61,945 nucleotides of DNA, filler included, from 7 parts of 7 records of this genome joined end to end with filler, not necessarily neighbours in it; one strand, 5' to 3'; positions 3,609-56,720 are shown, counted from the whole stretch's first letter. Program-made: numbers and translations. The notes: a model not told the origin generated them from the letters alone.

Positions 3609-3646
3609 AGACGTGCTGAGGTATATTGCTTAAAGGACTGTTTATA

Positions 3647-5074: not shown

Positions 5075-5222
5075 AATCCTGAAAACATAACTGTGGTGTA
5101 AATGTCCCAAAATTAACTCTGGTTTGAAAGTGTGAAAAAATCATTTGAAATCCATTCGGATCTATTTATTTAATAACGAATTGTTCAATAACAAACAAAA
5201 TAATTATTCCGGAAAGGCAAGT

Positions 5223-5876: not shown

Positions 5877-5958
5877 GACGAGTGGTAAAATAATGAATAG
5901 TTTATGAATTTATTAGTGTATTTTAAATTAAATAATTGTTAATCAGCAGGAGGTAAAG

Positions 5959-6043
5959 GTGAACCGGAAAGTAATAAATGTTATTATTATGTTATTCAGC
6001 ACGACACTCTGTTGGAGTCAGGGTAATAATACAGATCAAAAAA
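5959..6043 (+). CDS. 5' fragment of a secreted protein, cut by the contig end
   Basis: AGGAGG RBS, then GTG and a signal-peptide-like sequence (MNRKVINVIIMLFSTTLCWSQ). Confidence 0.5.
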
Positions 6044-6144
6044 ANNNNNNNNNNNNNNNNNNNNNNNNNNNNNNNNNNNNNNNNNNNNTTAATTAATTAA
6101 NNNNNNNNNNNNNNNNNNNNNNNNNNNNNNNNNNNNNNNNNNNN
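6044..6144. other. Artificial contig linker (N-run + TTAATTAATTAA + N-run)
   Basis: Six-frame stop linker; the same linker recurs at 11795-11894, 23692-23791, 41559-41658, 47853-47952 and 56621-56720. Confidence 0.99.
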
Positions 6145-11794: not shown

Positions 11795-11894
11795 NNNNNN
11801 NNNNNNNNNNNNNNNNNNNNNNNNNNNNNNNNNNNNNNTTAATTAATTAANNNNNNNNNNNNNNNNNNNNNNNNNNNNNNNNNNNNNNNNNNNN

Positions 11895-23691: not shown

Positions 23692-23792
23692 NNNNNNNNN
23701 NNNNNNNNNNNNNNNNNNNNNNNNNNNNNNNNNNNTTAATTAATTAANNNNNNNNNNNNNNNNNNNNNNNNNNNNNNNNNNNNNNNNNNNNA

Positions 23793-23906
23793 AAAAATCT
23801 TATTTGTTTTAATCCGATATTTTTCAAAGGGATGTCTCTTGATGAGATGATTGAATATATGAAATATGAAAACGAATCAATAAAAATCACAAAGATGTAT
23901 GTTTAA
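23793..23906 (+). CDS. 3' fragment of an unknown CDS
   Basis: Open frame from the contig start to TAA (KNLICFNPIFFKGMSLDEMIEYMK...). Confidence 0.4.
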   Translation, partial: KNLICFNPIFFKGMSLDEMIEYMKYENESIKITKMYV

Positions 23907-23923
23907 ATGTGAAGATTGGAAAA

Positions 23924-26383: not shown

Positions 26384-26387
26384 TAGA

Positions 26388-26416
26388 AAAAGGGTAGCAC
26401 ATCGTGCTACCCTTTA
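26388..26416. terminator. Bidirectional intrinsic terminator
   Basis: AAAAGGGTAGCAC-ATC-GTGCTACCCTTTT between convergent genes. Confidence 0.85.
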
Positions 26417-27096
26417 TTGTTTCTCATAGATTTTAATGTTAATTTAATGGTATCTGAAACTCTAAATGATTCTATTGCTTTTTGTATGGTCTTTTTATAA
26501 GTCCATTTATCTAATTGATTATCTTTCATATAAGCCATTCCTTTATCTGGATATTTTGCAAGAATTGTGGCAAAAGCCCAGGCAACACCCATTTTTGCAT
26601 AATAAGCATCTAATGCTTGTTGATCTAATATATTAATGACCTTATCAATATAATCATCAACTAGAAAATGGCATAAAAACATGACAGATACAATGCGTTG
26701 TTCAAACTCTTTTGTTGAATTGAAATAGGGTTCTAGAAACTGATAGACTTTTTCACGATGATTCCTTGCTTGTTTAAAATATGAACAAAGGGTATCATTA
26801 ACTGCCCATCCATCGACATAAGGGATAAATTTTTTAAAATAAGATAAAGCAATATCAATATTTTTTATTTTCGCAATCACCATAGCTTGGAGTTGTTTTA
26901 ACTCATAACAACTAAAATCATTGGTATCTAAGAATGAATAAGGATCATCTTGTTCAATTTGTTTTGCGATGTCTTTGATTTGTGGCATGGTTAGACCATA
27001 AATGAAGTTAACGCCAGGATTAAGTTTTTCATCAAATGCTCTACGTTTTGGATTTTCTAAGCGTTTAATAAGTGTTTTAATATGTTCGAGTGTCAT
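26407..27096 (-). CDS. DNA alkylation repair protein (AlkD-like)
   Basis: GLTMPQIK, VDGWAVND, YYAKMGVAW, QKAIESFR. Confidence 0.85.
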   Translation of the reverse strand: MTLEHIKTLIKRLENPKRRAFDEKLNPGVNFIYGLTMPQIKDIAKQIEQDDPYSFLDTNDFSCYELKQLQAMVIAKIKNIDIALSYFKKFIPYVDGWAVNDTLCSYFKQARNHREKVYQFLEPYFNSTKEFEQRIVSVMFLCHFLVDDYIDKVINILDQQALDAYYAKMGVAWAFATILAKYPDKGMAYMKDNQLDKWTYKKTIQKAIESFRVSDTIKLTLKSMRNNKG

Positions 27097-27204
27097 TAGT
27101 AACTCCTTAAGGTATTTAAGATATATTTTTGTAAATAAGATTTATCTTTGTATAGTTTCATGATAGACTATATATGACATTAAATCAAATTAAAGGAGAC
27201 AATC

Positions 27205-28154
27205 ATGGCTGATTTTTTTCTGCATTGTCAGATGATTGAAGATTTGTATAAAAAAATCCATCATATCAACACATTGCCTATGCAAAAATAGGGACACAAG
27301 GACCAGATCCATATTTTAATGTATTGAAAAAAGCATATAAAGAAGGTAATCGATTAGGAAATAAACTCCACCATTACCATATTAATCAATCACTTATCAC
27401 GATGACAAATTATGTTAAAGCACATTATTCCGATGAATTGATGGCGTATTATCGAGGATATTTAGCACATTATGCTCTAGATACGCATATTCATCCATAT
27501 ATATTTTATTTAACAGGTGAATACGATAAAACGCGCATAGAGACGCATCACTATTTCGGATATCATATGCGATTTGAAAGAAGTATTGATGTTGCATATA
27601 TTCAAAAAAGATATCAAAAAAACGCATCAAAATTTCATGATTATAAACGCGTGTTTCCATTAACAGATGTACCACAAGAGATTAAAGACATGATGACACA
27701 TGTAACAAAAGAAGTATTTGATGTAGATCAAGGTGGTATGTATTTTGAAAATGGGTATCACACGATGCGTTTATTATCAAAGACTTTAATTAAAGACCGC
27801 TTAGGTATAAAAAAAGTGTTTTTAAAATTTGTAGGACTGTTTTTGAAATTATCCATGTTGTATGTGCATGATTATCCATATACAACAAAACCAAATGCTT
27901 ATGATTTTTTAAATGATAAGCATCAAACATGGCATCATCCAGTCACAAATGAAGCGTTTAATTTATCAGTTGACCAAATTTATGATCAAGCATATAAAAG
28001 ATTAGAATATTTCATTCAATCAACGAATGCTTATATTTTAGATGATAAGGATATTGATTTAAGCGAAGTGTTTGCGAATCAATCTTATGACACAGGACTT
28101 GATATTGACACACAAGGTGTTATGCAGTATTTTAAACTCTATACTAAACAATAA
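27205..28154 (+). CDS. Zinc-dependent phospholipase C family protein, with a frameshift near 27250-27290
   Basis: AAGGAG + ATG at 27205 (MADFFLH); GTQGPDP in the second frame; GYLAHYALDTHIHPYI; H..FE..ID. Confidence 0.75.
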
Positions 28155-28161
28155 AAAAAGA

Positions 28162-29493
28162 TCATACTTCCATATGGAGGTATGATCTTTTTAAATATGT
28201 CATTTTATTAAATGATATTTTTTCTTCTAGTTCTTGATTTACTTCTTTTTGTTCATCAGGATGGACAAAGATAAGTAAACAAACACTAATTAATAGAGGT
28301 AAGAGTAATGTGACAACTGCGATATTTATACCATATAATGCCCCCACTAAGCCAATTAAGAATGGACTAAAAATACCACTAAATCGACCGAAGACGCTAA
28401 AGAACCCAAAAAACTCATTTGCTTTTTCTTTTGGTAACATTTTCGCAAAATAAGATCTTGAAATACCTTGAATACCACCTTGTGCACTACCTACTAATAT
28501 ACCAACTATCCACATGAGATAAGTCGTATTTTCAGTAATGAAAGACGCGACAACAACAGTAATTGCATAAACAGCAATTCCATAATAAATCATTGTTTTA
28601 CTACCGTATTTATCAGCCATGCGTCCATAGAGAATAGCACTAGGAAAAGCAATAAGCTGTACAAGTACAACAACGCCTAATAATACAGGATCACCAACAC
28701 CTAATTCTGAACCAATGGTTGTTGCAAGTCTAATGACTGTATTAACTACATCGTTATATAAAAGGAATGCAATTAAGAAAATAAAGATGTTTCTAAATTT
28801 TCTGATATGATTAAATGTAACCGCAAGGTTTTTAAATGCATCTCTAATTGGTGTATCAGATTTTTCTACCACATAAGTTTGTTCAACATCTTTTAATAAA
28901 GGTATTGAATAAACAAACCACCAAATAAGAGAGATGACAAATGCAAATGCAACACTCAAGTATTGATAAGATTCATCTAAAATACCAAAAGATACAAGTG
29001 CAAATGGAATGATTGCGACTGCGAAAGGTATCATAGATCCAATATAACCCCAAGCATAACCACTTGAACTGACATTATCCATGCGCTCTTCAGTTGTAAC
29101 ATCCATTAAAAATGCATCATAGATCACATTTGACAATGAATATCCAATACTTGAAATAGCAAAGAATGCAAGTAGAGCAATCATTTCAAATCCGGGAATA
29201 ATTAATCCAAATCCACCTACTATACCAATACCAAGGAAAAGTTTAAAGAATTTCATCTTATTTCCTTTATAATTGACTAATGATCCAATGACGGGTGATA
29301 ATAAAGCAACAATTAGAGCAATACCTGCAGTTACAAATGAATAGATAGTTGTACGATTATCATTATCAGCAGCAACAGCTTGATAATAAATCGGGAATAA
29401 TACAGTTACAACCGTCAATATGTATGCAGAGTTAGCAATATCATATAATATCCAACTACGCTCATTTTTAGTAAAACCTTTTAATTTAAACAT
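28162..29493 (-). CDS. MFS transporter (UMF1/Atg22-like)
   Basis: WILYDIANSAY, YDAFL..V, GYAWGYIG, SRSYFAK..FFGFF; 12-TM pattern. Confidence 0.88.
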   Translation of the reverse strand: MFKLKGFTKNERSWILYDIANSAYILTVVTVLFPIYYQAVAADNDNRTTIYSFVTAGIALIVALLSPVIGSLVNYKGNKMKFFKLFLGIGIVGGFGLIIPGFEMIALLAFFAISSIGYSLSNVIYDAFLMDVTTEERMDNVSSSGYAWGYIGSMIPFAVAIIPFALVSFGILDESYQYLSVAFAFVISLIWWFVYSIPLLKDVEQTYVVEKSDTPIRDAFKNLAVTFNHIRKFRNIFIFLIAFLLYNDVVNTVIRLATTIGSELGVGDPVLLGVVVLVQLIAFPSAILYGRMADKYGSKTMIYYGIAVYAITVVVASFITENTTYLMWIVGILVGSAQGGIQGISRSYFAKMLPKEKANEFFGFFSVFGRFSGIFSPFLIGLVGALYGINIAVVTLLLPLLISVCLLIFVHPDEQKEVNQELEEKISFNKMTYLKRSYLHMEV

Positions 29494-29610
29494 ATAGGCC
29501 TCTTTTCAGTTTAGTATGTACTACTTATGATTATATAGAATATATGAATCATTTATTTTGTTATTTACATGCTTTTTACACTATAATAAACATATAAGGA
29601 TGTGGTGTTT

Positions 29611-30309
29611 ATGTGTGGTAGATTTACGCTTGCAATATCAGCAAAACAATTATCTTCATATGTGATGGAAAAATATAAGATTGATCAACTCATGGATGAT
29701 GATTTTAAACCAAAATTTAATATTGCTCCAACGAGCCAAGTTATTTCTATTATACATGATTCAAAGAAATATCGTATGGGGACACTTAAATGGGGATTTG
29801 TTCCAAGTTTTTCTAAAGATGAGAAGAGTTTTCAAATGATTAATGCTAAAGCAGAAACATTATTTGATAAACCATCGTTTAAACAAGCAGCATTAAAACA
29901 AAGATGTGTTATTTTAGCAGATAGTTTTTATGAATGGGATAAGGCGAATAAAGATGAACCACCAAGACGTATTTTAACAACAGATCAGAAAGTGTTTGCA
30001 ATGGCAGGCATTTGGAATACGTTTGTTAAAGATGATGGTACTAAAGTGCATACGGTTGCTATTGTGACAACAAAAGCAAATGAAATGATGGAAACTATTC
30101 ATGATCGCATGCCTGTGATTTTAACAAAAAAAGGTGAAGATATCTGGTTGAATCCATTGATACAAGATAAAAAACAATTAGAGCAAGTATTAATACCTTA
30201 TCAAAAAGATAAAATGCGTATGTATAAAGTATCAAAAAAAGTTAATAAACCATCTTTTGATGAAGAAGAAGCGATTATTGAACTTATTGATGATGAAACA
30301 TTATTTTAA
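29611..30309 (+). CDS. SOS response-associated peptidase (SRAP/YedK/HMCES family)
   Basis: N-terminal MCGRF, NIAPT, INAKAET, FYEW, IHDRMPVIL. Confidence 0.93.
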   Translation: MCGRFTLAISAKQLSSYVMEKYKIDQLMDDDFKPKFNIAPTSQVISIIHDSKKYRMGTLKWGFVPSFSKDEKSFQMINAKAETLFDKPSFKQAALKQRCVILADSFYEWDKANKDEPPRRILTTDQKVFAMAGIWNTFVKDDGTKVHTVAIVTTKANEMMETIHDRMPVILTKKGEDIWLNPLIQDKKQLEQVLIPYQKDKMRMYKVSKKVNKPSFDEEEAIIELIDDETLF

Positions 30310-30313
30310 AGAT

Positions 30314-30339
30314 AACCGGTGCTAAGTTTAGCACCGGTT
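30314..30339. terminator. Intrinsic terminator between convergent genes
   Basis: AACCGGTGCTAA-GT-TTAGCACCGGTT. Confidence 0.8.
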
Positions 30340-30348
30340 TATTATATA

Positions 30349-31164
30349 TTAAGCAGGTATAACTGTCCCATCATATGTTTCTGTAATGAAGTCTTTAATC
30401 TCATCAGAAGTTAAAACATCAATTAAAGCTTGTATTTTAGGGAGTGTTTTTCTTCCATCTAATACAGCGAGGACATTCACATAAGGGTTGTTATCTGGCG
30501 ATTCTAAGAGAAGTGCATCATCTAGTGGATTAAGTCCACCTGATAATGCAAAGTTTCCATTGATAAAGACTAAATCACCTTGATCATTGTTGTATGCACT
30601 AAAGAGTAGTTCAGGATTGATTTGTTCAAAGTTTAAGTTTTTAGGATTCGTTGCAATGTCTTCAAGTGTTGCGGTTAATGTATCAACACCATCTTTTAAT
30701 GTGATGAGTCCTTGAGTTGCAAGGACTGACAAAAATCTTCCATGATCGGATGTTGAATTACTGATAATGACAGTTGCATCATTTGGAACATCAGATATAG
30801 ATGTATAGCGTTTTGAATATAAGCCAAGGGGTTCTATGTGGATATTTGCAACATTTAATAACTGACTATCTTCATCTGCGCTTTCGTTGTATTGATTAAG
30901 ATATGGGATATGTTGGAAGAAGTTAGCATCTGCTGAACCATTGGCAACCGCTGGATTAGGGGTTGTATAATCACTAACAACTGTAACATCAAGTGTGTAG
31001 CCAAGGTCTTCTAAATAAGGTCTTGCTTCTTCAAGTATTTCAGCATGTGGTACTGCGGTTGCAACCACGTATATTGTTGTTTCATCATCAATATCATTTT
31101 TTGCACATGATATGAGTGTTATTGATGTAATAAATAGTGTGAATATAAATAATATTTTTTTCAT
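30349..31164 (-). CDS. metQ: Methionine ABC transporter substrate-binding lipoprotein
   Basis: Own signal peptide MKKILF..LISC; VPHAEIL, DANFFQHIPYL, HIEPLGLYS, NPYVN. Confidence 0.88.
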   Translation of the reverse strand: MKKILFIFTLFITSITLISCAKNDIDDETTIYVVATAVPHAEILEEARPYLEDLGYTLDVTVVSDYTTPNPAVANGSADANFFQHIPYLNQYNESADEDSQLLNVANIHIEPLGLYSKRYTSISDVPNDATVIISNSTSDHGRFLSVLATQGLITLKDGVDTLTATLEDIATNPKNLNFEQINPELLFSAYNNDQGDLVFINGNFALSGGLNPLDDALLLESPDNNPYVNVLAVLDGRKTLPKIQALIDVLTSDEIKDFITETYDGTVIPA

Positions 31165-31178
31165 TTTAGTTTTCTCTT

Positions 31179-31845
31179 TTCTATGTATGTTTAATTTTTT
31201 TAATACGATATCAGATGCGATTTGTATAACAAATACAATCCCTAGTATAATGGCTACAGATACATATCCTGCAAGTTGCTTTTCAGAACCATTATGAATT
31301 AAGAATATAACTGCTTGATCACTTAAACCACCACCACCGATTGCGTTTGCTGCAGATACAAAGCCGATCAGTGTAATAAGAGTGACTGTAAATCCTGATA
31401 GAAGTGAGGGTAGTGCTTCACGTAGTAGTGTGAAAGTGATTTTTAATTTTGATGCACCAAGTGCAACAAGTGCTTCACTTTTACCTTTTGGGATATCATA
31501 TAAACTGTTTGCTACAATACGTGCATAAAAAGGTGTAGCACTTATGATAAGTGGTGGGAGTGCACCATTAGCACCAAGCATTTGTCCGTCTGTGATGATG
31601 AGTGTGACTGGAATCATAATTACAATTAAGATGACAAATGGCACGGAACGGAATATATTAACAATCCCTGATAATACTTGATGACATATGTGTAAGTATT
31701 TGTTTTGTGTTTGTGATTGACTTGTAAAGAATAATGAAAATCCTATGATAAGGCCAAAAACTAATATAAATAATGCGCTAATTGCAATCATATATAGTGT
31801 TTCAATAAGCCCTTCTTTAATGAGTTCAATATCATATGCGTTCAT
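31179..31845 (-). CDS. metI: Methionine ABC transporter permease (stop probably lost through a 1-nt indel)
   Basis: ETLYM, NIFRSVPFVIL, PFYARIV, EALVALGAS, EALPSL, AIGGGGL. Confidence 0.85.
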
Positions 31846-32812
31846 ATAAAGATACCTCGATACCTTGAGATTGAATAAATCTAATTGCTTGATTAATGTC
31901 TTTTCCTTGGATGCTTATATATAAGTATCCAATATGATGATCAACAATATCAAGCACATGAGCATGTAAAATGCTTATGTCGACTTGATATGTCTTAATC
32001 GCTTCGCTTAATACAGATTGATCTTGTGCATCTTTTTGATAGATGAGTTCGTAGATGTTTTCTGGTTTATGCTCTAAATGTAGTGTTTGTTTTACAAGTG
32101 ATTTTGTGACAGGATGCTGTGGATGCATAAAAAGTTCTAATATAGGATTTTCTTCAACGATTTGACCTTGATCCATCACAACCACGCGGTCACAGATTTG
32201 TTTGATTGCTTCGATTTGATGCGTGATCAGTATAATGGTCACATGCGTTTTTCTTTGTATGTTTTTAAGTAAATCAAGTATGTCATAAGATGTTGAAACA
32301 TCAAGAGCAGAAGTCGCTTCATCACATAGTAAATACTTTGGCTTGTTAGCAAGTGCTCTTGCGATTGCGACCCGTTGTTTTTGACCACCTGATAATTGTG
32401 AAGGATATGCATCTTTTTTGTCTTGCAAACCGACAAGTTCTAAAAGTTCTAAAATACGTGCATGTTGATCAGGTATTGTTTTTGAAATAGAAAGTGCTAG
32501 TTTGATATTTTGATATACAGTAAGCTGATCAAATAAATTAAAATCTTGAAAAATCATGCCGATTTGCTGACGCATTCGATTCAATGCCTTCGCTTTCAAT
32601 CTCAAAATATGGGTACCGTCAATGATGATATCACCTGATGTAGGTGTGATTAGTTTATTCATCAGTCTAATGAGTGTTGATTTACCTGCGCCACTATAAC
32701 CGACAATACCTAATATTTCACCATCATGAATCGTAAGATTAATATCTTTTAAAGCGTGAAGTTCTTTTTGATATGATTTAAATGTTTTATTGATGTTTAC
32801 TAATTGTATCAT
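31832..32812 (-). CDS. metN: Methionine ABC transporter ATP-binding protein
   Basis: GYSGAGKST, LSGGQKQR, LLCDEATSALD; C-terminal NIL-like domain. Confidence 0.92.
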   Translation of the reverse strand: MIQLVNINKTFKSYQKELHALKDINLTIHDGEILGIVGYSGAGKSTLIRLMNKLITPTSGDIIIDGTHILRLKAKALNRMRQQIGMIFQDFNLFDQLTVYQNIKLALSISKTIPDQHARILELLELVGLQDKKDAYPSQLSGGQKQRVAIARALANKPKYLLCDEATSALDVSTSYDILDLLKNIQRKTHVTIILITHQIEAIKQICDRVVVMDQGQIVEENPILELFMHPQHPVTKSLVKQTLHLEHKPENIYELIYQKDAQDQSVLSEAIKTYQVDISILHAHVLDIVDHHIGYLYISIQGKDINQAIRFIQSQGIEVSLYERI

Positions 32813-32832
32813 GCTGTAATCTCCCGATATAT

Positions 32833-32863
32833 AAAAAAGTAGCCTTATCAGCGATAAGGCTAC
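32833..32863 (-). terminator. Riboswitch expression-platform terminator
   Basis: Minus strand GTAGCCTTATC-GCT-GATAAGGCTAC-TTTTTT upstream of metN. Confidence 0.88.
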
Positions 32864-32883
32864 GTGAATAACTAAGCATATAT

Positions 32884-32967
32884 CTTATCGCTTATAGCAT
32901 TACCACCTTGCACATGAGCAGGTTGGTAGACGATCATAGAGCTATATCTCTCCCGTCTTCTTGATAA
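32884..32967 (-). ncRNA. SAM-I (S-box) riboswitch, P4-less variant
   Basis: P1 TTATC/GATAA, J1/2 AAGA, P2 AGACG/CGTCT with kink-turn, P3 ACCAACC/GGTGGT, pseudoknot ATAGC/GCTAT; lies upstream of metNIQ. Confidence 0.88.
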
Positions 32968-32983
32968 TTTTTAATTTGTAAGT

Positions 32984-33012
32984 ATTGTAACACCCATTTT
33001 TAAATCTGTAAA
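32984..33012 (-). promoter_or_regulatory. Sigma70/SigA promoter of the met operon
   Basis: TTTACA-17 bp-TACAAT. Confidence 0.7.
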
Positions 33013-33095
33013 GTCTTTTGGTATATTTTATTTATTTCATATGTTTAATGATCATGAAAATGATAAAATAATAGTAAACATAGGGAGGTAAAAAT

Positions 33096-33494
33096 ATGAA
33101 AAAGTTTTTTAAAGATTTTAATCAATTTATTGCTAAAGGTAACGCGTTAGATTTAGCGGTAGGAATTGTGATTGGGACTGCGTTTAACGCAATCGTTAAA
33201 AGTTTAGTCAGTGATATCATTATGCCATTTATTAGTTTAATAGGCGGTAAAGATATTGAAAACTGGTTTTGGGTAATGAAAGGAACATCAAGTTTTGATA
33301 TAGAATCTGGAAGTTATGTGTTTTCTGCAGATGCAGTCGTTCTATATTATGGTAGATTTATGCAATCTGTGATTGATTTCTTTTTAATTGCATTAGCAAT
33401 ATTTGTTGCACTACGCGCTATCGCATATTTTAAAAAGCGCATAGAAGAAGTTAAAGATTTATTGGACGATGAAGAAGAGCAAAAACAAGCATAA
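33096..33494 (+). CDS. mscL: Large-conductance mechanosensitive channel
   Basis: FIAKGNALDLAVGIVIGTAFNAIVKSLVSDIIMP, YGRF..VIDF. Confidence 0.95.
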   Translation: MKKFFKDFNQFIAKGNALDLAVGIVIGTAFNAIVKSLVSDIIMPFISLIGGKDIENWFWVMKGTSSFDIESGSYVFSADAVVLYYGRFMQSVIDFFLIALAIFVALRAIAYFKKRIEEVKDLLDDEEEQKQA

Positions 33495-33515
33495 TTAAAT
33501 ATAAGTATATAAAAT

Positions 33516-33547
33516 AAACTGCTAGGAACAGTGCTTCCTAGCAGTTT
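33516..33547. terminator. Bidirectional intrinsic terminator
   Basis: AAACTGCTAGGAA-CAGTGC-TTCCTAGCAGTTT. Confidence 0.85.
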
Positions 33548-33895
33548 TTATTTTAGTATTTTTTCTAATGGCTTTCCTTTTGCAAGATCATCAATGAGTT
33601 TATCAAGATATCGGATATGTCTAGCGAGTTCATCTTCTATATTTTCCACACGTAATCCACAAATAACACCTTTAATTTCAACTCTTTTTGGATGCATTGC
33701 AGGTGCTTTATCAAAAAAGGTTTTAAATGTATCATGAGTCTTAGCATAGTGATCAATATCTTTTTTAGTATATCCAGTTAACCAAGAAATGATTTGATCA
33801 ACTTCAGCATGAGTTCTGCCTTTTCTTTTAGCTTTTTGAACATAGAAAGGATAGATTTTAGAAAATGTCATGTCATAATATGGTTTTAAGTTCAT
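33548..33895 (-). CDS. DUF2200 family protein
   Basis: [47 protein letters not shown]. Confidence 0.88.
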
Positions 33896-33904
33896 AAGGA
33901 TCCT

Positions 33905-34237
33905 TTACTGATCAGTTGATAAATCAATGATCATTGATAGTGGGTACTTCATATGATTAATATATATGATTTTATTAATCATATCAACTTTAGTGACTTG
34001 TCCATAGAGTTGTTTTATATATCCATCTTGAAAATAAGTGATATAAACAGGACATTTCTCGTGAACTGCTTGTTTTAAGTGAAGGTCCATTTCATAGAGT
34101 TTATCTTCAGATAACACAGGTTTTTCTTGTTTTCCTAATCGATGTTTTAAAGCTTTATAAAGATGATTAAAACCGGCAAGTCCATCAAATGGTGCCCATT
34201 TGATAATGCCGCGGTCAACATAGACTTGATTATTCAT
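33905..34237 (-). CDS. YolD-like protein
   Basis: DRGIIKWAPF, KPVLSEDK, ITYFQDG; overlaps the Y-polymerase stop codon. Confidence 0.88.
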   Translation of the reverse strand: MNNQVYVDRGIIKWAPFDGLAGFNHLYKALKHRLGKQEKPVLSEDKLYEMDLHLKQAVHEKCPVYITYFQDGYIKQLYGQVTKVDMINKIIYINHMKYPLSMIIDLSTDQ

Positions 34238-35504
34238 GATGACCTCCCACAAAACGATTACGCTTTACAATTGTAGAATGTTCTTCTAAAGCTTCAGCGC
34301 GATTAATTGCATTTTTACCATAGCGCATTTTGATATGATCAATTGATGAGAGGAGTTGGTATTCTTTTTCGATTTCATTGGCATCTTCAAATAATGAATA
34401 TTGATAGATTTTAGAATCTGTTAATTTAGATAATGATACAGATACCGAACGTATGAGACTACCATCATAGTTTCGATGAAATATATCAAGGCATGTATGA
34501 TAAATCTCTTTAAATGATGATGTCGGTTGATCAAGTGTCACTTGCTGGTGGAGTCCTCCACCAGTAGATAGTGAATAACCAACACCAAAGTGAATCACAC
34601 GACAACGCTTTTTATTCATGCGAAGACGTCTTGTGATTTCATCAGCCATTTCTAAGATAATGGTATAAATCTCAGGTGTCTGATAATCATGAAAAAGCAC
34701 TTGGCTTGTGCCAAAACTTTTGTTTTTTGAACGTAACTTATTTTTATCTTGTATCACACTCATATCAATGCCATGTGTATGATAATAGAGTTCTTCACCT
34801 AAAATGCCAAAATGATCTTTTAGAATGGATACATTGTAGTTTGCAATATCACCAATCGTGTGTAAGCCTAAAAAGTTTAAATTACGTTCCATACGATGAC
34901 CAATACCCCACATTTTTGATAATGGTTCTATAGGCCATAGTTTTTTTGGAATATCTTCATATGTCCATTTTGCAATGGAATCTTTTTGTTTTTTAGAATC
35001 TAAATCCATCGCCAGCTTTGAGATAAGCATATTAGGACCTACCCCACAACTTGCAGGTAAACTTAATTTATCTAAGATATCTTTAACAATTTTCCTACCT
35101 AAGTCAACATCGCTCATTTGATAAAGAGATAGATAGTTTGTAACGTCTAAAAAGGCTTCATCAATAGAATAAACATATAAATCTTCATCAGCGACATAAG
35201 ATAGATAAATCTCAATAATTTTCATTGTGTATTCAAGATATGTCTTCATTTGTGGCTTTGCATAAATAATATAAGGTTTGATATCATCAGGGATATCAAA
35301 GAGTCTTGCACGAGAAGAAATGCCTAGTGATTTTAAGTAAGGTGTCACAGCAAGACACAAAGCACCGTTACCTCTGGATTGATCAGCGACCACTAAAGGT
35401 GTTGAAAAAGGATCAAGTCCTCGTAGTGCACATTCAACGGAGGCATAAAAACTTTTAAGATCAATACAGATAATATTTTTATGAATTTGATATTGTTCAT
35501 GCAT
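34230..35504 (-). CDS. Y-family translesion DNA polymerase (UmuC/UvrX-like)
   Basis: IDLKSFYASVE, YSIDEAFLD, MWGIG, C-terminal VGGHH; AAGGAGG RBS. Confidence 0.93.
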   Translation of the reverse strand: MHEQYQIHKNIICIDLKSFYASVECALRGLDPFSTPLVVADQSRGNGALCLAVTPYLKSLGISSRARLFDIPDDIKPYIIYAKPQMKTYLEYTMKIIEIYLSYVADEDLYVYSIDEAFLDVTNYLSLYQMSDVDLGRKIVKDILDKLSLPASCGVGPNMLISKLAMDLDSKKQKDSIAKWTYEDIPKKLWPIEPLSKMWGIGHRMERNLNFLGLHTIGDIANYNVSILKDHFGILGEELYYHTHGIDMSVIQDKNKLRSKNKSFGTSQVLFHDYQTPEIYTIILEMADEITRRLRMNKKRCRVIHFGVGYSLSTGGGLHQQVTLDQPTSSFKEIYHTCLDIFHRNYDGSLIRSVSVSLSKLTDSKIYQYSLFEDANEIEKEYQLLSSIDHIKMRYGKNAINRAEALEEHSTIVKRNRFVGGHHE

Positions 35505-35529
35505 AGTTTCATGCCTCCTTTGTTTTGGT

Positions 35530-35558
35530 ATTATATATGTTAAAAAGTATATTTTCAA
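35530..35558 (-). promoter_or_regulatory. Promoter of the Y-polymerase/yolD operon
   Basis: TTGAAA-17 bp-TATAAT. Confidence 0.7.
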
Positions 35559-35680
35559 GTATAATTTTGATGAAAGTTTATGAAAACATTTTACATGGAT
35601 TTTTATTTATAATATTGATTAATAAAGTTGATATAGCCTATATTTTCTATAAATAATTTAGTGAGTTGTGGAGGTCTTTT

Positions 35681-35764
35681 AGTTAGTTAAGTTATGTATC
35701 ACCAGTAGAATATAGATTAAATGATGTCTATTCTAAAAGTGTCTAAAAAACCGTCGGCAATCCG
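35681..35764 (+). mobile_element. IS3-family right-end remnant
   Basis: Degenerate tail S-*-L-S-Y-V-S-P-V-E-Y-R followed by the IS3-like end GTGTCTAAAAAACCGTCGGCAATCC. Confidence 0.45.
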
Positions 35765-35897
35765 GATTTGTATAAATTGAACCCATTTAGATGCTTACTC
35801 AAACAATTGAAAAAACGTTTATTGATAACGGTTTTGCTATTAGTGATTATTAATTACAAAAGAAGTATCATAGTAATGTCTATATACAAATGATTAT

Positions 35898-35926
35898 TTG
35901 AGTAAAAAATTACTTAGTGATATAAT
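35898..35926 (+). promoter_or_regulatory. cas9 promoter
   Basis: TTGAGT-17 bp-TATAAT with an extended TG. Confidence 0.7.
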
Positions 35927-35953
35927 AAACTAAAATACACAAAGGGGAAAAAT

Positions 35954-38900
35954 ATGAAAAAAATTATTGGTATTGACTTAGGTATCACATCAGTTGGGTG
36001 GGCAGTAATTAATCAAAAATTAGACGTTTTAGCAAGTGGTGTAAGATTGTTTGAAGAATCTAAACCATCAAATAATGTGGATAGAAGAATGCACCGAGGT
36101 CAAAGAAGATTAAAAAGAAGAAAAGCACAAAGAATTCTTGATCTTAAATATCTTTTAACCAATGAAGGATTGATTACAAATGATTTTAAGCACTTAGATG
36201 ATCCATATCAAATTAGAGCTAAAGGATTAAATGAAAAACTCTCAAATGATGAATTAGCAACAGCATTGCTTCATATCGCTAAAAGAAGAGGCAGTTGTTT
36301 AGAGACAATAGAAGATGAAAACACAAAAAACGAAGATAGTCCGAAAGTTATATTATCAAAAAACGATCAGGCATTAGACGAACATGGTTATGTTTGTCTT
36401 GTCCAATTGAATCGATTAATAGAAAATCAAAAAATCAGAGGAACAAATAATGTTTTTAGACTTGATGACTATGTCAAAGAAATTAAACAAATCTTAAAAC
36501 ATCAAGATATTGAAAAACACATTGAAGGAAAAATAATTGATATCATTACTAGAAAAAGATCTTATGAACGTGGACCTGGTAGTATTACATCACCAACTAA
36601 ATATGGCGCTTATAGAGAAATATCAGTAGAAGACGAAGTCATAGTTTTTCCCTATATAATAAAAAACTATAAGCAGATATATAAGAAAAAACAATTTGAA
36701 TTTAGTCTAGATGATGTAAGTTATACTGTATTAAAAGATGGTCGTATTGTTAATACAGAACCTTATAGTTTGATTGATTTGATGCGCGGTAGATGTAGTA
36801 TTTTTGAAGATGAATTAAGAGCACCGAAAAACGCATTCTCCGCTGAACTGCATGATTTTTTAAATGATTTAAACAACCTTTCAATAAAGCATCGTGACAA
36901 TCCAAAATTGACAACAAAAGAAAAAGAAGACATCATTAATATAATTATAGAAAATGGCGATTTCAAGCCTAAAGGTGTCAAAGGACTAGCGAAATTTTTA
37001 AATGTTGATATTGATGATATACAAGGACTTAGAGAAAAATATAGTTCAAATAAAATCACGTACTTATTAACAGAATTTAAAGGATATAAAACAATTAAAA
37101 AAGCTGTTGATAACGATAAAGATATCATTGGTAATATTAAGTTGTTAGACGAGATTGCTGAAATTTTATCAACCACACAAGATATTGAAACAAGAAAAGA
37201 TAAACTATCCCGATTAATTGATCATAAATATATTGAAAGATTAAGTGAATGTGTAGGTTTTACGAAGTTTCATAGTTTTTCATTTAAAGCATTAGATATT
37301 TTGAATAAAGAAATGTTAGAAACAACATTAAATCAACAACAAATCATTACTAAGAATAATTTAAAGCCAAATGTAGAACACACAAACTTCTTTGAAATCA
37401 AAGAAGATATTTTAAATCCTGTTGTTAAACGTGCGCAAAGAGAAGCATTGAAAGTGATTGATGCTTTATCTAAAGAGTTTGATGATATTGATAAAATCGT
37501 GATTGAAACTACAAGAAGTAAAAACAGTGATGATGAAAGAAAAAACTATAGAGATCAACAAGCATATTATAAAAAATTAAAAATAGAAGCTGAAGAATTA
37601 GTAACAGGTAGCGGATATAATGATATCCAACTGTCTAATCAAGTGATTAATAAGATTAAAATGTATAAGGAGCAAAATGGTAAATGTGCTTATACTGGAT
37701 TACCACTTGATCTTCATAGAATTATAAAGGATCACAGATCTTATGAAATTGATCACATTATACCTTATTCTGTTTCAATGGATAATAGTCAAAACAACAA
37801 AGTACTAGTTATACCTAGCGCGAATCAGCTCAAGGGAAATAAAACACCTTTTGGGTATTTTAAGTCTGGAAAAATTGTTGAAAAAGCTGTAATTAGTAAT
37901 TGGGACGCATTTAAAGTCAATGTTAGCATGAATCCTAATTATTCAAAACAAAAAAAGAATAATCTATTATTAGAAAAAACACTAACTAGATTTGATGATA
38001 TGGAAAAATTTATCGCAAGAAATTTAAATGATACTAGTTATGCAGTTAGAGTTTTCATGAATCATTTGAAGTCTTATTATAAGTCGCAAAATATGCCTAT
38101 TAAAGTGGTGACTGTTAAAGGAAAACAAACAAGTTTTTATCGCAAGATGGTTGTAATAGAGTGGTATAAACATCATGAGACCATTGGGACTGATTTAGTC
38201 AATCCGATGAAAAAAGATAGAGAAAAATACATGCATCACGCGATTGATGCGCTTATAATCGCAGGACTTAGTCAACAAAAATTGATAAGAGCGATGCATG
38301 AACAGAAAAAAGAAGCATTAATTGATGAACAAACTGGAGAGATAAGCTATATTGATCCTACACATGATAGTGATTTTATTAAGTATTTAAGAACAATATC
38401 AGAGTTAGAGAGCGATGATATAAGATTTTCATGGAAAATAGATACTAAACCAAATAGAAAGTTTTCAGATGAAACCATATATTCAACTAGAAAGATTAAT
38501 GAAAAAGATTATAAAGTCTCAAAAGAGAAAGATATTTATGCACTAGAAAGCAAGAAAATCCAAAAATTAATTATCGATCAAAAAGAACAGTTACTAATGT
38601 ATCGTCACGATGAACAAACATATCATAAATTGGTAGATATTTATCTACAATATAAACATGAAAAATATCCATTTGAAGCATATAGACAACAGCATGGATA
38701 TATTACAAAGTTTGCTAAGAAAAATAATGGGCCACAAATTAAACAATTAAAACGTTTAGATGGAACAATATCACAACCACTTGATATTTCACATAAATAT
38801 CAAACAAAAGAGAAACGTGTTATTTTAACAGGATTAAAAGCATATAGAGTTGATATTTATCAAAACGAAAAAGGTAGATATCGATTTGTTACAATTAGAT

Positions 38901-39268
38901 TTAGCGATGTAAAACCAAAAGGTGATTTTGCATATATTTCAAAAGAACACTATGATCAAAAGTTAAAAGAAAAAAATATTGATAAGACCTATGCATTTAA
39001 GTTTAGTTTATATAGAAATAGTATAGTAAGCATTAAAAAAGAAACTAAAGGTGTCATTGATGAAAACATGTATAGATTTATAGCTATCAAGAGTGACAAG
39101 ACTAATGTTTTAGAGTTTAAGAACATAGATAAGAATAATGATGCTAATAGCAGAATTACCCCTACTATAGGACCATCAATTAAGAAAATAAATAAATATA
39201 ATGTATCTGTAACTGGAAAATATAAAAAAGTCGATCGTGAACTATTGAATTTAAAAGTGCATCTATGA
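35954..39268 (+). CDS. cas9: Type II-A Cas9 (1104 aa)
   Basis: RuvC-I IGIDLGITSVGW, Arg-rich bridge helix, RuvC-II IVIETTR, HNH YEIDHIIP..N..NKVL..N..K, RuvC-III HHAIDA. Confidence 0.98.
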   Translation: MKKIIGIDLGITSVGWAVINQKLDVLASGVRLFEESKPSNNVDRRMHRGQRRLKRRKAQRILDLKYLLTNEGLITNDFKHLDDPYQIRAKGLNEKLSNDELATALLHIAKRRGSCLETIEDENTKNEDSPKVILSKNDQALDEHGYVCLVQLNRLIENQKIRGTNNVFRLDDYVKEIKQILKHQDIEKHIEGKIIDIITRKRSYERGPGSITSPTKYGAYREISVEDEVIVFPYIIKNYKQIYKKKQFEFSLDDVSYTVLKDGRIVNTEPYSLIDLMRGRCSIFEDELRAPKNAFSAELHDFLNDLNNLSIKHRDNPKLTTKEKEDIINIIIENGDFKPKGVKGLAKFLNVDIDDIQGLREKYSSNKITYLLTEFKGYKTIKKAVDNDKDIIGNIKLLDEIAEILSTTQDIETRKDKLSRLIDHKYIERLSECVGFTKFHSFSFKALDILNKEMLETTLNQQQIITKNNLKPNVEHTNFFEIKEDILNPVVKRAQREALKVIDALSKEFDDIDKIVIETTRSKNSDDERKNYRDQQAYYKKLKIEAEELVTGSGYNDIQLSNQVINKIKMYKEQNGKCAYTGLPLDLHRIIKDHRSYEIDHIIPYSVSMDNSQNNKVLVIPSANQLKGNKTPFGYFKSGKIVEKAVISNWDAFKVNVSMNPNYSKQKKNNLLLEKTLTRFDDMEKFIARNLNDTSYAVRVFMNHLKSYYKSQNMPIKVVTVKGKQTSFYRKMVVIEWYKHHETIGTDLVNPMKKDREKYMHHAIDALIIAGLSQQKLIRAMHEQKKEALIDEQTGEISYIDPTHDSDFIKYLRTISELESDDIRFSWKIDTKPNRKFSDETIYSTRKINEKDYKVSKEKDIYALESKKIQKLIIDQKEQLLMYRHDEQTYHKLVDIYLQYKHEKYPFEAYRQQHGYITKFAKKNNGPQIKQLKRLDGTISQPLDISHKYQTKEKRVILTGLKAYRVDIYQNEKGRYRFVTIRFSDVKPKGDFAYISKEHYDQKLKEKNIDKTYAFKFSLYRNSIVSIKKETKGVIDENMYRFIAIKSDKTNVLEFKNIDKNNDANSRITPTIGPSIKKINKYNVSVTGKYKKVDRELLNLKVHL

Positions 39269-39274
39269 TAAAAT
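39245..39274 (+). promoter_or_regulatory. tracrRNA promoter overlapping the cas9 3' end
   Basis: TTGAAT-18 bp-TAAAAT with an extended TG. Confidence 0.6.
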
Positions 39275-39278
39275 GAAA

Positions 39279-39385
39279 GTGTCTCAAAGAGACATTTGAA
39301 TAGCAAAGGTTTTAGAGGACCTAGCAAAACAAGGGAATTATTTCCCGAATTCGAACTCACTTCGTGTGGGTTCTTTTTCTTTTTT
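39279..39385 (+). ncRNA. tracrRNA
   Basis: Anti-repeat GAATAGCAAAGGTTTTAGAGGACCTAGCAAAAC (39298-39330) is complementary to the repeat at 41529; then nexus AAGGGAA..TTCCC and terminal hairpin GAACTCAC-TTCGT-GTGGGTTC plus U-tract. Confidence 0.92.
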
Positions 39386-40282
39386 ATGAGTTGGAGAGTC
39401 ATCTTTATTGAAGATTCTGAGCATTTATCGCTATATTTGGATAATATCAAAATCAAAAATTATGACGATGATATTTTAGTACCACTTAGCGATGTTCACT
39501 CTTTGATTATTGATAATTACAAGACTACTTTATCTATACATTTAATAAACGCACTCACAGAAAATAAAGTCAATGTAGTATTATGCGATATTGAACATAT
39601 GCCAAGTTCGATTATATTTCCTTTATTTGGGCATCATTTATCAATGGAAGCCCAAACTAAGCAGTTTAATTGGACAAAACAACAAAAAATCATATTGCAT
39701 GATATCATTGTGAAACACAAAATATACAATCAACGTGCCATGTTACAATTCATTGAAGCAGACAAAGAAGTATTAGAAAAACTAAAGCAGTTTGAAGAAG
39801 AAGTTATCAATGGTGATCAATACAATAGAGAAGGGTTAAGCGCTAAAATATATTTTAGGAATTTATTTGGACCTGACTTTATGAGATTTGAAGAGGATGT
39901 CATGAATGCAGGACTTAATTATGGTTATGCGATATTAAGATCACAGATAAGTCGTGCATTGGTTTCCAAAGGGTTAAATACAGCTTTTGGTTTTTTTCAC
40001 CATGGTCCACAAAATAAATTCAACCTAAGCGATGACTTCATTGAACCGTTTAGACCCATTATTGATTGCTATGTGTATAAAGAACTAAGAGAAACTTTAA
40101 TCTTTCAAAAAGAGCATCGTATCGCTTTAGTAAAACAAACAACCAAAAAAATTATTATTCAAAACAAAAAACAAACTATTTTTAATGCAATAAATTTATA
40201 TATTGAGTCTATTCTATCTTTTATACAGACAGGGGATATCGATCAAGTATTTCAACCAACGATGAAATTTTATGATTTATGA
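39386..40282 (+). CDS. cas1: Type II CRISPR integrase Cas1
   Basis: MSWRVIFI start, NREG..AK.YF..LFG, NAGLNYGYAILR, HH..N.FNLSDDFIEPFRP. Confidence 0.96.
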   Translation: MSWRVIFIEDSEHLSLYLDNIKIKNYDDDILVPLSDVHSLIIDNYKTTLSIHLINALTENKVNVVLCDIEHMPSSIIFPLFGHHLSMEAQTKQFNWTKQQKIILHDIIVKHKIYNQRAMLQFIEADKEVLEKLKQFEEEVINGDQYNREGLSAKIYFRNLFGPDFMRFEEDVMNAGLNYGYAILRSQISRALVSKGLNTAFGFFHHGPQNKFNLSDDFIEPFRPIIDCYVYKELRETLIFQKEHRIALVKQTTKKIIIQNKKQTIFNAINLYIESILSFIQTGDIDQVFQPTMKFYDL

Positions 40283-40595
40283 TTTTATGCGTTTAATTGT
40301 CATGTTTGATTTACCTGTCAAAACGAAAAAAGAAAGACGAAAATATACGAAGTTTAGAAAATTTTTATTATCTAAAGGGTATTTAATGCTGCAATATTCA
40401 GTATATGTGAAAATTGCAGCAAATAGAGATAGTCTAGATAAACATATAAAGTTAGTTCAAAAAAATGTTCCTGATGAAGGACAAATAAGAATCTTAATGT
40501 TAACAGAAAAACAATACGCTAGAATGGAAGTCATATTAGGAGGAAAATCAAGAAAAGAATCTATAGTTACACATGATCCATTAATTATACTGTGA
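40272..40595 (+). CDS. cas2: Cas2
   Basis: MRLIVMFDLPV, FRKFLL..GY.MLQYSVY, LTEKQY. Confidence 0.96.
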   Translation: MIYDFMRLIVMFDLPVKTKKERRKYTKFRKFLLSKGYLMLQYSVYVKIAANRDSLDKHIKLVQKNVPDEGQIRILMLTEKQYARMEVILGGKSRKESIVTHDPLIIL

Positions 40596-40604
40596 GGTGA
40601 GGTT

Positions 40605-41486
40605 ATGATAGAAATTAAATCGATAAATCAGAATAATAAATATAGTTCAAGCATTGATCGAGTCAAATATTTTTTAGGTCCTGATAGAACGGGGAAAGAA
40701 TATTTTGTAGATAGCATAAAAAGGATTTTTTACAAGATTGATCATAGTGAATATGCATATGAACATAAATTAGATTCAACAGTTACAATTGATGAAAAAA
40801 CAATTAAATTAAAAAACTGGAATTTATTGGATATACATACACATATTAATCTTAGTCAAGAATTAGCAATTGGTAGTCGTTCAATGATGCATCAATACAT
40901 TGAATCAATATTAAGAGATATAGAGTATAGTGATGAACTAAACACAATTAATATACTGTTTGAACAGTTAGCAGAAATGTTATCAGAAAAAATGATATCT
41001 TTTGATGATATTGAAATTGATCCAAGATTTGAAACAATCACACAAAAACAACTGATTAAAATGTTAAGTTTAAGATTTATAAATGAAAAAAATATAATGG
41101 ATTATTTAGATTTAAGTTATGAGGCAAAGATTCTTTTTCAAATATATATGGCTGAACAGATAGCTGAAAAAAATGAACTATTTAAGTATATGGTTATTAT
41201 AGATGTTCCAAGGATAAATAATAAAATTAAAAATGCATTAGATAGTATTACAAGTGATAATATGTTTGTTGTTGTTTTAACTGAAACTAATATTGATGTT
41301 AGTATTAAAGATGTAACATATTTTGGCACAAAAGTGATCGATTTTTCAAATGATATTAGTATATATAATGAATTGATGATGGAAGTTGATCAAGTGTATA
41401 ATTTAGATGAAATGAAGTGCGTGATTAAGAGATTTATAGAAGGTATAGATGATAAAGATACTAGAAGATTGGAGAATTATCTTTAG
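40605..41486 (+). CDS. csn2: Csn2-like protein (293 aa, long-type)
   Basis: Position between cas2 and the array in a cas9-cas1-cas2 locus; N-terminal FLGPD..GK resembles long Csn2 forms. Confidence 0.62.
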   Translation: MIEIKSINQNNKYSSSIDRVKYFLGPDRTGKEYFVDSIKRIFYKIDHSEYAYEHKLDSTVTIDEKTIKLKNWNLLDIHTHINLSQELAIGSRSMMHQYIESILRDIEYSDELNTINILFEQLAEMLSEKMISFDDIEIDPRFETITQKQLIKMLSLRFINEKNIMDYLDLSYEAKILFQIYMAEQIAEKNELFKYMVIIDVPRINNKIKNALDSITSDNMFVVVLTETNIDVSIKDVTYFGTKVIDFSNDISIYNELMMEVDQVYNLDEMKCVIKRFIEGIDDKDTRRLENYL

Positions 41487-41528
41487 GATAATTTCTTAAT
41501 TTTAAACTTATGATATAATGAGTTTGAG
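41487..41528 (+). promoter_or_regulatory. CRISPR leader with promoter and leader-anchoring sequence
   Basis: TG-A-TATAAT at 41511-41519; ends GTTTGAG, close to the II-A ATTTGAG leader end. Confidence 0.8.
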
Positions 41529-41558
41529 GTTTTGTTACCCTCTAAATTTTTGCTATTC
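41529..41558 (+). CRISPR. First CRISPR repeat (30 nt visible; array cut by the contig end)
   Basis: GTTTTGTTACCCTCTAAATTTTTGCTATTC, complementary to the tracrRNA anti-repeat; no spacers visible. Confidence 0.88.
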
Positions 41559-41658
41559 NNNNNNNNNNNNNNNNNNNNNNNNNNNNNNNNNNNNNNNNNN
41601 NNTTAATTAATTAANNNNNNNNNNNNNNNNNNNNNNNNNNNNNNNNNNNNNNNNNNNN

Positions 41659-47852: not shown

Positions 47853-47954
47853 NNNNNNNNNNNNNNNNNNNNNNNNNNNNNNNNNNNNNNNNNNNNTTAA
47901 TTAATTAANNNNNNNNNNNNNNNNNNNNNNNNNNNNNNNNNNNNNNNNNNNNGA

Positions 47955-56620: not shown

Positions 56621-56720
56621 NNNNNNNNNNNNNNNNNNNNNNNNNNNNNNNNNNNNNNNNNNNNTTAATTAATTAANNNNNNNNNNNNNNNNNNNNNNNN
56701 NNNNNNNNNNNNNNNNNNNN

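Follow-up and report, generated by a model that had tools for sequence, protein, structure and literature searches.

The DNA stretch at positions 35954–41558 very probably holds a chromosomal type II-A CRISPR (short palindromic repeats that are clustered and regularly interspaced)–Cas9 adaptive immunity locus of an uncultured, Acholeplasmataceae-like bacterium that uses genetic code 11. The stretch is part of a window (the whole DNA that was analyzed) of 61945 bases, in which seven contigs are joined by N44-TTAATTAATTAA-N44 linkers, and it occupies the 3′ end of a contig of 17.8 kb (23792–41558, G+C 30.4%). Its parts are, in order, cas9, a trans-activating CRISPR RNA (tracrRNA) on the plus strand, cas1, cas2, a fourth gene identified below as csn2, a leader of 42 nucleotides (nt), and a 30-nt repeat stub. 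Open reading frames (ORFs) were confirmed at the positions given in an earlier reading of this DNA, which is called the original prediction here. The features of the locus are as follows, with protein lengths in amino acids (aa).

35954–39268, plus strand: cas9, encoding a SaCas9/St1Cas9-like compact Cas9 of 1104 aa; stop codon TGA
38744–39265, plus strand: protospacer adjacent motif (PAM)-interacting part of cas9, residues ~931–1104, a variable segment among close relatives
39245–39274, plus strand: promoter-like site from a consensus scan (TTGAAT, 18 nt, TAAAAT, with TG before the second hexamer), a candidate for the tracrRNA
39298–39385, plus strand: tracrRNA core, between cas9 and cas1 (cofold, duplex scan, single-strand fold, and terminator scan)
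39298–39330, plus strand: anti-repeat
39333–39346, plus strand: stem–loop 1 (nexus), a hairpin of 5 base pairs (bp)
39353–39373, plus strand: terminator-like hairpin, followed by a T run at 39374–39385
39386–40282, plus strand: cas1, 298 aa, with its ATG directly after the tracrRNA T run; stop codon TGA
40272–40595, plus strand: cas2, 107 aa, matching TIGR01573 (9.5e-28) and Pfam CRISPR_Cas2; stop codon TGA
40605–41486, plus strand: csn2, 293 aa, assigned to the long (St) type of Stu0660 by profile search and predicted fold
41487–41528, plus strand: CRISPR leader, 42 nt, read from the sequence
41511–41519, plus strand: TGATATAAT, an extended −10 element in the leader, read from the sequence
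41522–41528, plus strand: leader end GTTTGAG, forming the junction GTTTGAG/GTTT at 41522–41532
41529–41558, plus strand: CRISPR repeat 1, of which only the first 30 nt precede the end of the contig

A compact Cas9 related to SaCas9 and St1Cas9

The protein encoded by cas9 matches the family model TIGR01865 with an expectation value (E) of 3e-182 and contains the Pfam domains HNH_4, RuvC_III, CRISPR_Cas9_WED (9.6e-29), and Cas9_PI2 (3.6e-12). Its best solved relative is SaCas9 (phmmer E of 6.5e-148 against the SaCas9 chains, with residues 4–210 and 275–1093 aligned), and the second best is St1Cas9 (1.1e-120). Residues D8, E518, H601, N624, H762, and D765 align with SaCas9 D10, E477, H557, N580, H701, and D704, which we take to be the catalytic residues of that enzyme, and all six are identical. 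The original prediction had described an intact 1104-aa Cas9 with its catalytic motifs, and both the full-length ORF and the identity of these residues agree with this description and support the view that the Cas9 is intact. Five Cas9 variants of 1104–1105 aa, all of them unbroken proteins, are found in different assemblies.

The enzyme had also been called compact. This is accurate in that it belongs to the SaCas9 size class, but it is not smaller than known compact Cas9 proteins, because its length of 1104 aa falls between those of the solved SaCas9 chains (1053–1056 aa) and St1Cas9 (1121 aa).

Judged by its sequence, this Cas9 is a new member of the SaCas9/St1Cas9-like compact clade, including its WED and PAM-interacting (PI) domains. 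The nearest clusters in the protein collection searched are unnamed metagenomic proteins with 95% and 76% identity, and the rest are at most 51% identical among the matches listed. The exact sequence of the window Cas9 is absent from this collection. Named matches, which come from Izemoplasma, Acholeplasmataceae, Alteracholeplasma palmae, Erysipelotrichaceae, and Amedibacillus, reach at most 48% identity. No near-identical characterized Cas9 was found in a comparison that had the sequence sets of large screening papers outside its scope, and the novelty of the enzyme, which the original prediction had left for checking, is upheld within these bounds. Searches of the literature on Cas9 together with Acholeplasma and tracrRNA, or together with Izemoplasma, listed no paper that, judged by title or abstract, characterizes such an enzyme. 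Metagenomes were scanned twice for relatives of the protein, with the protein alone and with an alignment as the query, and neither scan returned any. A scan of a genome collection returned one locus, L001, which is a 3457-nt contig (C13) of the metagenome-assembled genome (MAG) G001. This contig carries the same locus end and also stops inside repeat 1.

Repeat pairing and the guide RNA scaffold

The repeat stub, GTTTTGTTACCCTCTAAATTTTTGCTATTC, occurs once in the window, at 41529–41558, and none of 100 shuffles matched. When the stub is cofolded with 39285–39386, repeat nucleotides 1–9 pair with 39322–39330 (9 bp, one of them G-U), nucleotides 11–18 pair with 39311–39318 (8 bp), and nucleotides 19–30 pair with 39298–39309 (12 bp, two of them G-U). 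Repeat nucleotide C10 is unpaired and faces three unpaired tracrRNA bases, and a single bulged tracrRNA base separates the 8-bp and 12-bp blocks. Cofolding thus reproduces the three pairings that had been proposed from inspection, with a duplex energy of −32.8 kcal/mol. On neither strand of the contig does any other site stand out in this way. Across a background of 1768 windows of 60 nt, drawn from its two strands, the energy averages −7.6 with a standard deviation of 3.1, and the best site outside the tracrRNA region reaches −17.5 kcal/mol.

Exactly two hairpins are located 3′ of the anti-repeat, at 39333–39346 and 39353–39373, which corresponds to the nexus and single terminal hairpin of the original prediction. 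The single-strand fold of the tracrRNA has a z score of −2.8, and its primary transcript probably starts near 39281. A chimera of 41529–41545, a GAAA linker, and 39311–39385 is 96 nt long and folds as intended with a minimum free energy of −36.3 kcal/mol, at a z score of −7.3 relative to 200 mononucleotide shuffles. A candidate single guide RNA (sgRNA) can be derived directly from these two segments, as had been suggested. The accompanying statement that the guide scaffold is short is overstated. According to the available part of a description of SaCas9 (PMC13090337), the sgRNA of that enzyme has the same parts, with two hairpins and a T run after the anti-repeat. Since the guide layout is that of SaCas9, a scaffold of 96 nt is not unusually short.

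In L001, the tracrRNA region has 99.1% identity to that of the window, with one gap in 117 columns that reflects one T fewer in the T run. The leader and the repeat stub are 100% identical between the two loci, and cas1, cas2, and csn2 are 92–96% identical. No match to Rfam was found in 35400–41558 at E ≤ 1, the tracrRNA included.

Adaptation genes and a divergent Csn2

The cas1 product matches TIGR03639, the model for type II Cas1, over model positions 1–277 of 278 (2.9e-82), and also matches Pfam Cas_Cas1. Its start is most likely the ATG at 39386, which is in frame with the TTG at 39296 that opens a longer ORF; TIGR03639 matches this longer ORF from residue 33 onward. The TTG was rejected as the start for this reason, and also because a cas1 gene beginning there would run across the entire tracrRNA.

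The product of the fourth gene has no match in Pfam or NCBIfam, even at E ≤ 10 and with PF16813 included, and a word-indexed search finds only three relatives. These results could mean that the gene is an unrelated passenger in a locus that resembles type II-C, and that it is not csn2. We regard this explanation as extremely unlikely. An exhaustive profile search recovers a family of ~290-aa proteins with 237 representatives at E ≤ 0.001, including 181 at E ≤ 1e-10. A profile built from 65 of these sequences (the query and 64 selected relatives) matches one solved structure, which is Stu0660 of S. thermophilus (3zth), with an E of 1e-6. PF16813 (Cas_St_Csn2) is matched by 6 of the 65 profile members at E ≤ 0.1, the best at 1.4e-08. 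Furthermore, an AlphaFold2 model of the protein (pLDDT 90.9, pTM 0.85) has 3zth_A as its top Foldseek match (E 3.1e-12, TMq 0.73, TMt 0.63, and a root-mean-square deviation of 5.1 over 322 columns). The canonical Csn2 structures 3qhq, 3s5u, 3toc, and 6qxf are matched as well, interspersed with ABC-type ATPase folds. The gene also occupies the place of csn2, between cas2 and the leader.

On the basis of the profile and the modeled fold, the fourth gene product is a divergent Csn2 of the long type. By sequence it is a remote relative of PF16813 and not a member of that family as built. In the available text of PMC3695520, Stu0660 defines a second, long Csn2 group whose proteins form ring-shaped tetramers that bind double-stranded DNA ends. 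With the fourth gene shown to be Csn2 by profile and fold, the locus is type II-A, as had been predicted. The locus also documents a Csn2-like lineage of ~290 aa that is largely missed by current models, both in Pfam, where 6 of 65 sequences match PF16813, and in NCBIfam, for which the scan covered the window protein only.

Variation in the PAM-interacting domain

The distribution of differences among close Cas9 relatives was compared in a set of five full-length proteins that are mutually at least 92% identical. Two proteins of this set differ on average at 16.2% of positions in residues 931–1104 and at 2.45% in residues 1–930, and 60 of the 111 variable columns fall in alignment columns 901–1100. 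Distinct alleles are present in two blocks, near residues 931–990 and 1040–1080. In the second block, the window allele almost matches that of P0003, a relative with 76% identity, and is unlike those of the 95% relatives. This resemblance points to segment exchange. On the overall pattern, the PAM-reading part of Cas9 is probably being exchanged or diversified among strains.

In SaCas9, R1015 reads the third PAM base, a G, and N985 and R991 are among the PAM-reading residues (PMC13090337, available part). R1067 of the window protein aligns with R1015 and is conserved across L001 and the six full-length variants. In an alignment whose HMMER per-position confidence is lower over the PAM-reading positions than elsewhere, SaCas9 N985, N986, R991, and E993 align with N1038, M1039, A1044, and K1046, some of which vary between strains. 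The position aligned with E993 is K, Y, N, or A across the variants. The second variable block spans the positions aligned with the SaCas9 residues that read PAM positions 4–6, and also the one aligned with E993. Because the residues opposite N986, R991, and E993 are M, A, and K and some of the aligned positions vary between strains, an NNGRRT PAM is not to be assumed for this enzyme. As a reasonable guess from the aligned residues, and no more than that, the PAM might have a G at position 3 followed by strain-specific downstream bases.

The best solved match of the PI domain fragment is St1Cas9 (4.2e-22, versus 5.8e-18 for SaCas9). The last 105 aa of Cas9 alone have no match in the PDB at E ≤ 0.01, which bears out the earlier description of the PAM-interacting region as divergent. 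As read from the alignments, at least four natural variants of the PAM-reading loop are carried on a nearly constant protein, and these could serve as a small natural panel for PAM engineering.

Within the PI region of the L001 Cas9, at ~640–790 of that contig, a masked run of N translates as 45 X residues. The apparent insertion in the alignment of L001 Cas9 DNA is not an indel; the masked run mimics it.

Leader, array, and spacer

The junction of leader and repeat fits the Group 1 motif ATTTGAG/GTTT at six of seven leader bases and four of four repeat bases. In the accessible part of PMC5382924, this type II-A motif goes with the long-Csn2 branch. The repeat stub is followed directly by an N44-TTAATTAATTAA-N44 joiner at 41559–41658. 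The array is missing from the window because the contig ends at 41558, and it was therefore cut by the joiner and not by the genome. That no spacers are visible in the window, as the original prediction noted, reflects a contig that ends inside repeat 1.

At least part of 39200–41558 is contained in 18 public runs from eight studies, with run labels that include aquatic, sand, and algae metagenomes; four of the runs were compared. Run X1 has an identical contig of 71.8 kb that spans the whole stretch and reads through the array. Beyond the point corresponding to 41558, this contig continues with 36 letters, then with repeat nucleotides 1–18 only, and then with unrelated sequence. The 36 letters are read as the six that end a 36-nt repeat and a 30-nt spacer. 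The first six are assigned to the repeat because four of them pair, by eye, with 39294–39297 just upstream of the anti-repeat, and because 36 nt is the usual length of type II-A repeats (PMC5382924, accessible part). The array is probably truly minimal, with a single 30-nt spacer between one complete repeat and a half repeat at its end. The two duplex blocks required for an sgRNA are still present in the 18-nt half repeat (duplex energy with the tracrRNA of −18.7 kcal/mol), and a CRISPR RNA (crRNA) for the single spacer is therefore plausible. Another run, X15, has a 2345-nt contig that runs past 41558 and shows no second repeat piece among the matches listed; it was not used. Neither the 30-nt repeat nor its 3′ 21 nt was found in G001, and no array was found in that genome. 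The downstream flank of the array was found neither in G001 nor in the window, and searches of viral contigs turned up neither the repeat nor an array.

An array that is really long and varied, with the single spacer an artifact of a simplified public contig, is possible, though we consider it doubtful. The window and L001 are independent assemblies and both break inside repeat 1, as assemblers do at repeated or polymorphic arrays. Moreover, the X1 contig may share the sample of the window, and it represents one path only. However, this 71.8-kb contig passes repeat 1 and the spacer into unique DNA, and several full repeats would be expected to break such a contig. Its second repeat copy also matches for only 18 nt before the sequence becomes unrelated.

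A minimal array might also be the remnant of a decaying or idle system, in which erosion has left the array with one spacer and half a repeat, adaptation has ceased, and the cas genes remain whole only because decay set in recently. The layout of the X1 contig, where a complete repeat and a spacer are followed by an 18-nt remnant of a second repeat, fits this scenario. So does the sparse occurrence of the Cas9 lineage, which is present in 1 of the 283 genomes of the order of G001. In addition, the sole system of the Acholeplasma branch in the available part of a 2019 survey, that of A. palmae J233, is degraded (PMC6882279). This explanation is nonetheless unlikely. All four cas ORFs of the window run to full length, as does Cas9 in five additional variants. 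When the window is compared with L001, the tracrRNA, leader, and repeat show stronger conservation than the coding DNA beside them. Variation in Cas9 is focused on the PAM-reading domain and is not spread as in a pseudogene, and the repeat remnant keeps both duplex blocks.

It is very unlikely, but conceivable, that the locus is maintained for one fixed guide, made up of one spacer and the half repeat behind it. Cas9 would then be a dedicated single-target guard or regulator and not an open-ended memory, and strains would swap PAM-reading modules on an otherwise constant Cas9/tracrRNA chassis. If this were true, the 18-nt half repeat would be just the two duplex blocks that the tracrRNA and Cas9 need.

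Proposed function of the locus

For an adaptive immunity locus, which is the reading we prefer, the steps of action are taken from homology and family membership; the genes, duplex, hairpins, terminator, and leader motif are parts present in the DNA itself. The tracrRNA would be transcribed from within the end of cas9 and would end at the terminator-like hairpin with its T run, immediately ahead of cas1. The array would be transcribed from the extended −10 promoter in the 42-nt leader. The anti-repeat is expected to pair with each repeat, and host RNase III together with Cas9 would mature the crRNA. The complex of Cas9, crRNA, and tracrRNA would find a PAM located 3′ of the protospacer via the WED and PI domains, and Cas9 would cut both strands with its HNH and RuvC sites. 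New spacers would be inserted at the GTTTGAG/GTTT junction by Cas1, Cas2, the long Csn2, and Cas9.

Several observations weigh against a working immune system. None of the 18 public runs that contain the stretch is recorded as RNA, and the transcript ends are predicted. The promoter consensus scan as a whole is at chance, with 20 sites found and 20.6 expected, and the promoter-like site at 39245–39274 is for this reason a lead and not evidence. The cas1 gene has no visible ribosome-binding site and its ATG lies right behind the tracrRNA terminator (39374–39388), so the adaptation genes would have to be expressed by read-through or from a promoter that escaped notice. Decay of the array could also account for a single spacer followed by half a terminal repeat. 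The single spacer was recovered from X1, which possibly has the same source as the window and hence is not independent.

Finally, the array recovery and protospacer matching proposed in the original prediction succeeded only in part: one 30-nt spacer was obtained from the X1 contig, but no protospacer was found for it among viral contigs, phages, plasmids, genomes, or the window. Specifically, there was no exact match in viral contigs, blastn gave chance-level matches only (best E of 0.2 for phages and 0.4 for plasmids), and no match with up to three mismatches was present in the 283 genomes of the order of G001. The window, which has no visible spacer of its own, likewise held no match. With no protospacer found, no PAM can be read from targets.

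Host, neighboring genes, and related loci

The assignment of the host as an uncultured, code-11, Acholeplasmataceae-like bacterium is supported by the coding sequences of the contig. TGA ends 5 of its 15 ORFs, with cas9, cas1, and cas2 among them; there is no in-frame TGA, and 46 TGG codons are present. The best named relatives of the MetN ATPase encoded on the same contig are Mycoplasmatota and Acholeplasmataceae MAGs, with 66–68% identity, and isolates of Acholeplasma, Paracholeplasma, and Mariniplasma are 54–56% identical. Stop codon usage and MetN relatives alike agree with the code-11 Mollicutes-like host that had been predicted.

Flanking genes are ordinary chromosomal ones, and also include MscL. 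The features located outside the locus are as follows.

29602–30309: SRAP gene
30349–32812: methionine ABC transporter genes, consisting of an ATPase with a NIL domain and an ORF for a fused permease/NlpA-lipoprotein
32882–32970, minus strand: S-adenosylmethionine (SAM) riboswitch RF00162, 52.6 bits, upstream of the methionine ABC transporter genes
33905–35558, minus strand: Y-family DNA polymerase with IMS domains, and a YolD-like gene; both lie just upstream of cas9 and oppose it in orientation
6045–6144, 11795–11894, 23692–23791, 41559–41658, 47853–47952, and 56621–56720: the six joiners between contigs

The DNA from 41659 onward is unrelated to the locus and carries glycoside hydrolase genes. 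G+C content ranges from 0.30 to 0.44 across the contigs of the window, with 0.41 and 0.44 in the first two, and because of this spread the pieces may not all derive from one organism.

Among the 283 genomes of the order of G001, this Cas9 lineage was detected at E ≤ 1e-60 in G001 only. When G001 and its relatives were searched, 10 of 41 genomes gave a Cas9 match, and the loci of the relatives carry Cas9 proteins that are 26–34% identical. A second, distant Cas9 is present in G001 itself, on contig C57 at ~3637–5979, as an open frame of 1159 aa that is 28–39% identical in the matched parts.

Comparison with known systems

The closest structurally characterized enzyme, SaCas9 (PDB 5axw, 5czz, and 7enr), has the same domain set of RuvC, HNH, WED, and PI and the same guide layout. 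The window Cas9 is ~50 aa longer, and its repeat and tracrRNA sequences are its own. St1Cas9 (PDB 6rj9), from the CRISPR1 system of S. thermophilus, is similar in size at 1121 aa, and both systems have a long Csn2 of the Stu0660 type. The two Csn2 proteins differ in length (293 aa in the window and 350 aa for Stu0660) and are 14% identical in a structural alignment with partial coverage of Stu0660. The leader end of S. thermophilus CRISPR1, ATTTGAG/GTTT, also belongs to Group 1 in the accessible part of PMC5382924, and that of the window differs from it by one base. The host phyla of the two systems differ.

Systems of Mollicutes were surveyed by Ipoutcha et al. (2019), and in the available part of that paper (PMC6882279) they are type II-A with cas9, tracrRNA, cas1, cas2, and csn2. 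SaCas9 was the best structural match for all surveyed Cas9 proteins, and the WED and PI residues were not conserved. The same part of the survey lists a single system for the branch of Acholeplasma, Asteroleplasma, and Phytoplasma, the degraded one of A. palmae J233, and none in 11 other Acholeplasma genomes. The A. palmae Cas9, an 861-aa fragment, is the closest protein from a named isolate, with 48% identity over 78% of the query. In contrast to this disrupted locus, the window locus is intact, and unlike the surveyed Mollicutes systems its host reads TGA as a stop codon. The biological significance of the locus is therefore that of an intact type II-A system in a branch for which the available part of the survey had only a degraded one.

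It is already known that differences between closely related Cas9 proteins can be concentrated in the PI domain. For relatives of Nme1Cas9, a “hypervariable PAM-interacting domain” is described, together with highly diverse PAMs in close orthologs (preprint by Wei et al. 2022, cited in the available part of PMC11741284). Those proteins are type II-C enzymes with measured PAMs, whereas the window system is type II-A and its variation is read from sequence only. Large catalogs of metagenomic Cas9 proteins and PAMs also exist already (PMC12996302 and PMC11741284, in the parts available). In practical terms, the locus contributes a further compact Cas9 in the size class of SaCas9, for which the tracrRNA, the repeat, and a foldable 96-nt scaffold are now defined. 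The locus is an ordinary type II-A system of the SaCas9/St1Cas9 kind, and it leaves the understanding of such systems unchanged. What is new is the Cas9 sequence and the presence of an intact system in this bacterial branch, and the small array and mosaic PI domain are of modest interest.

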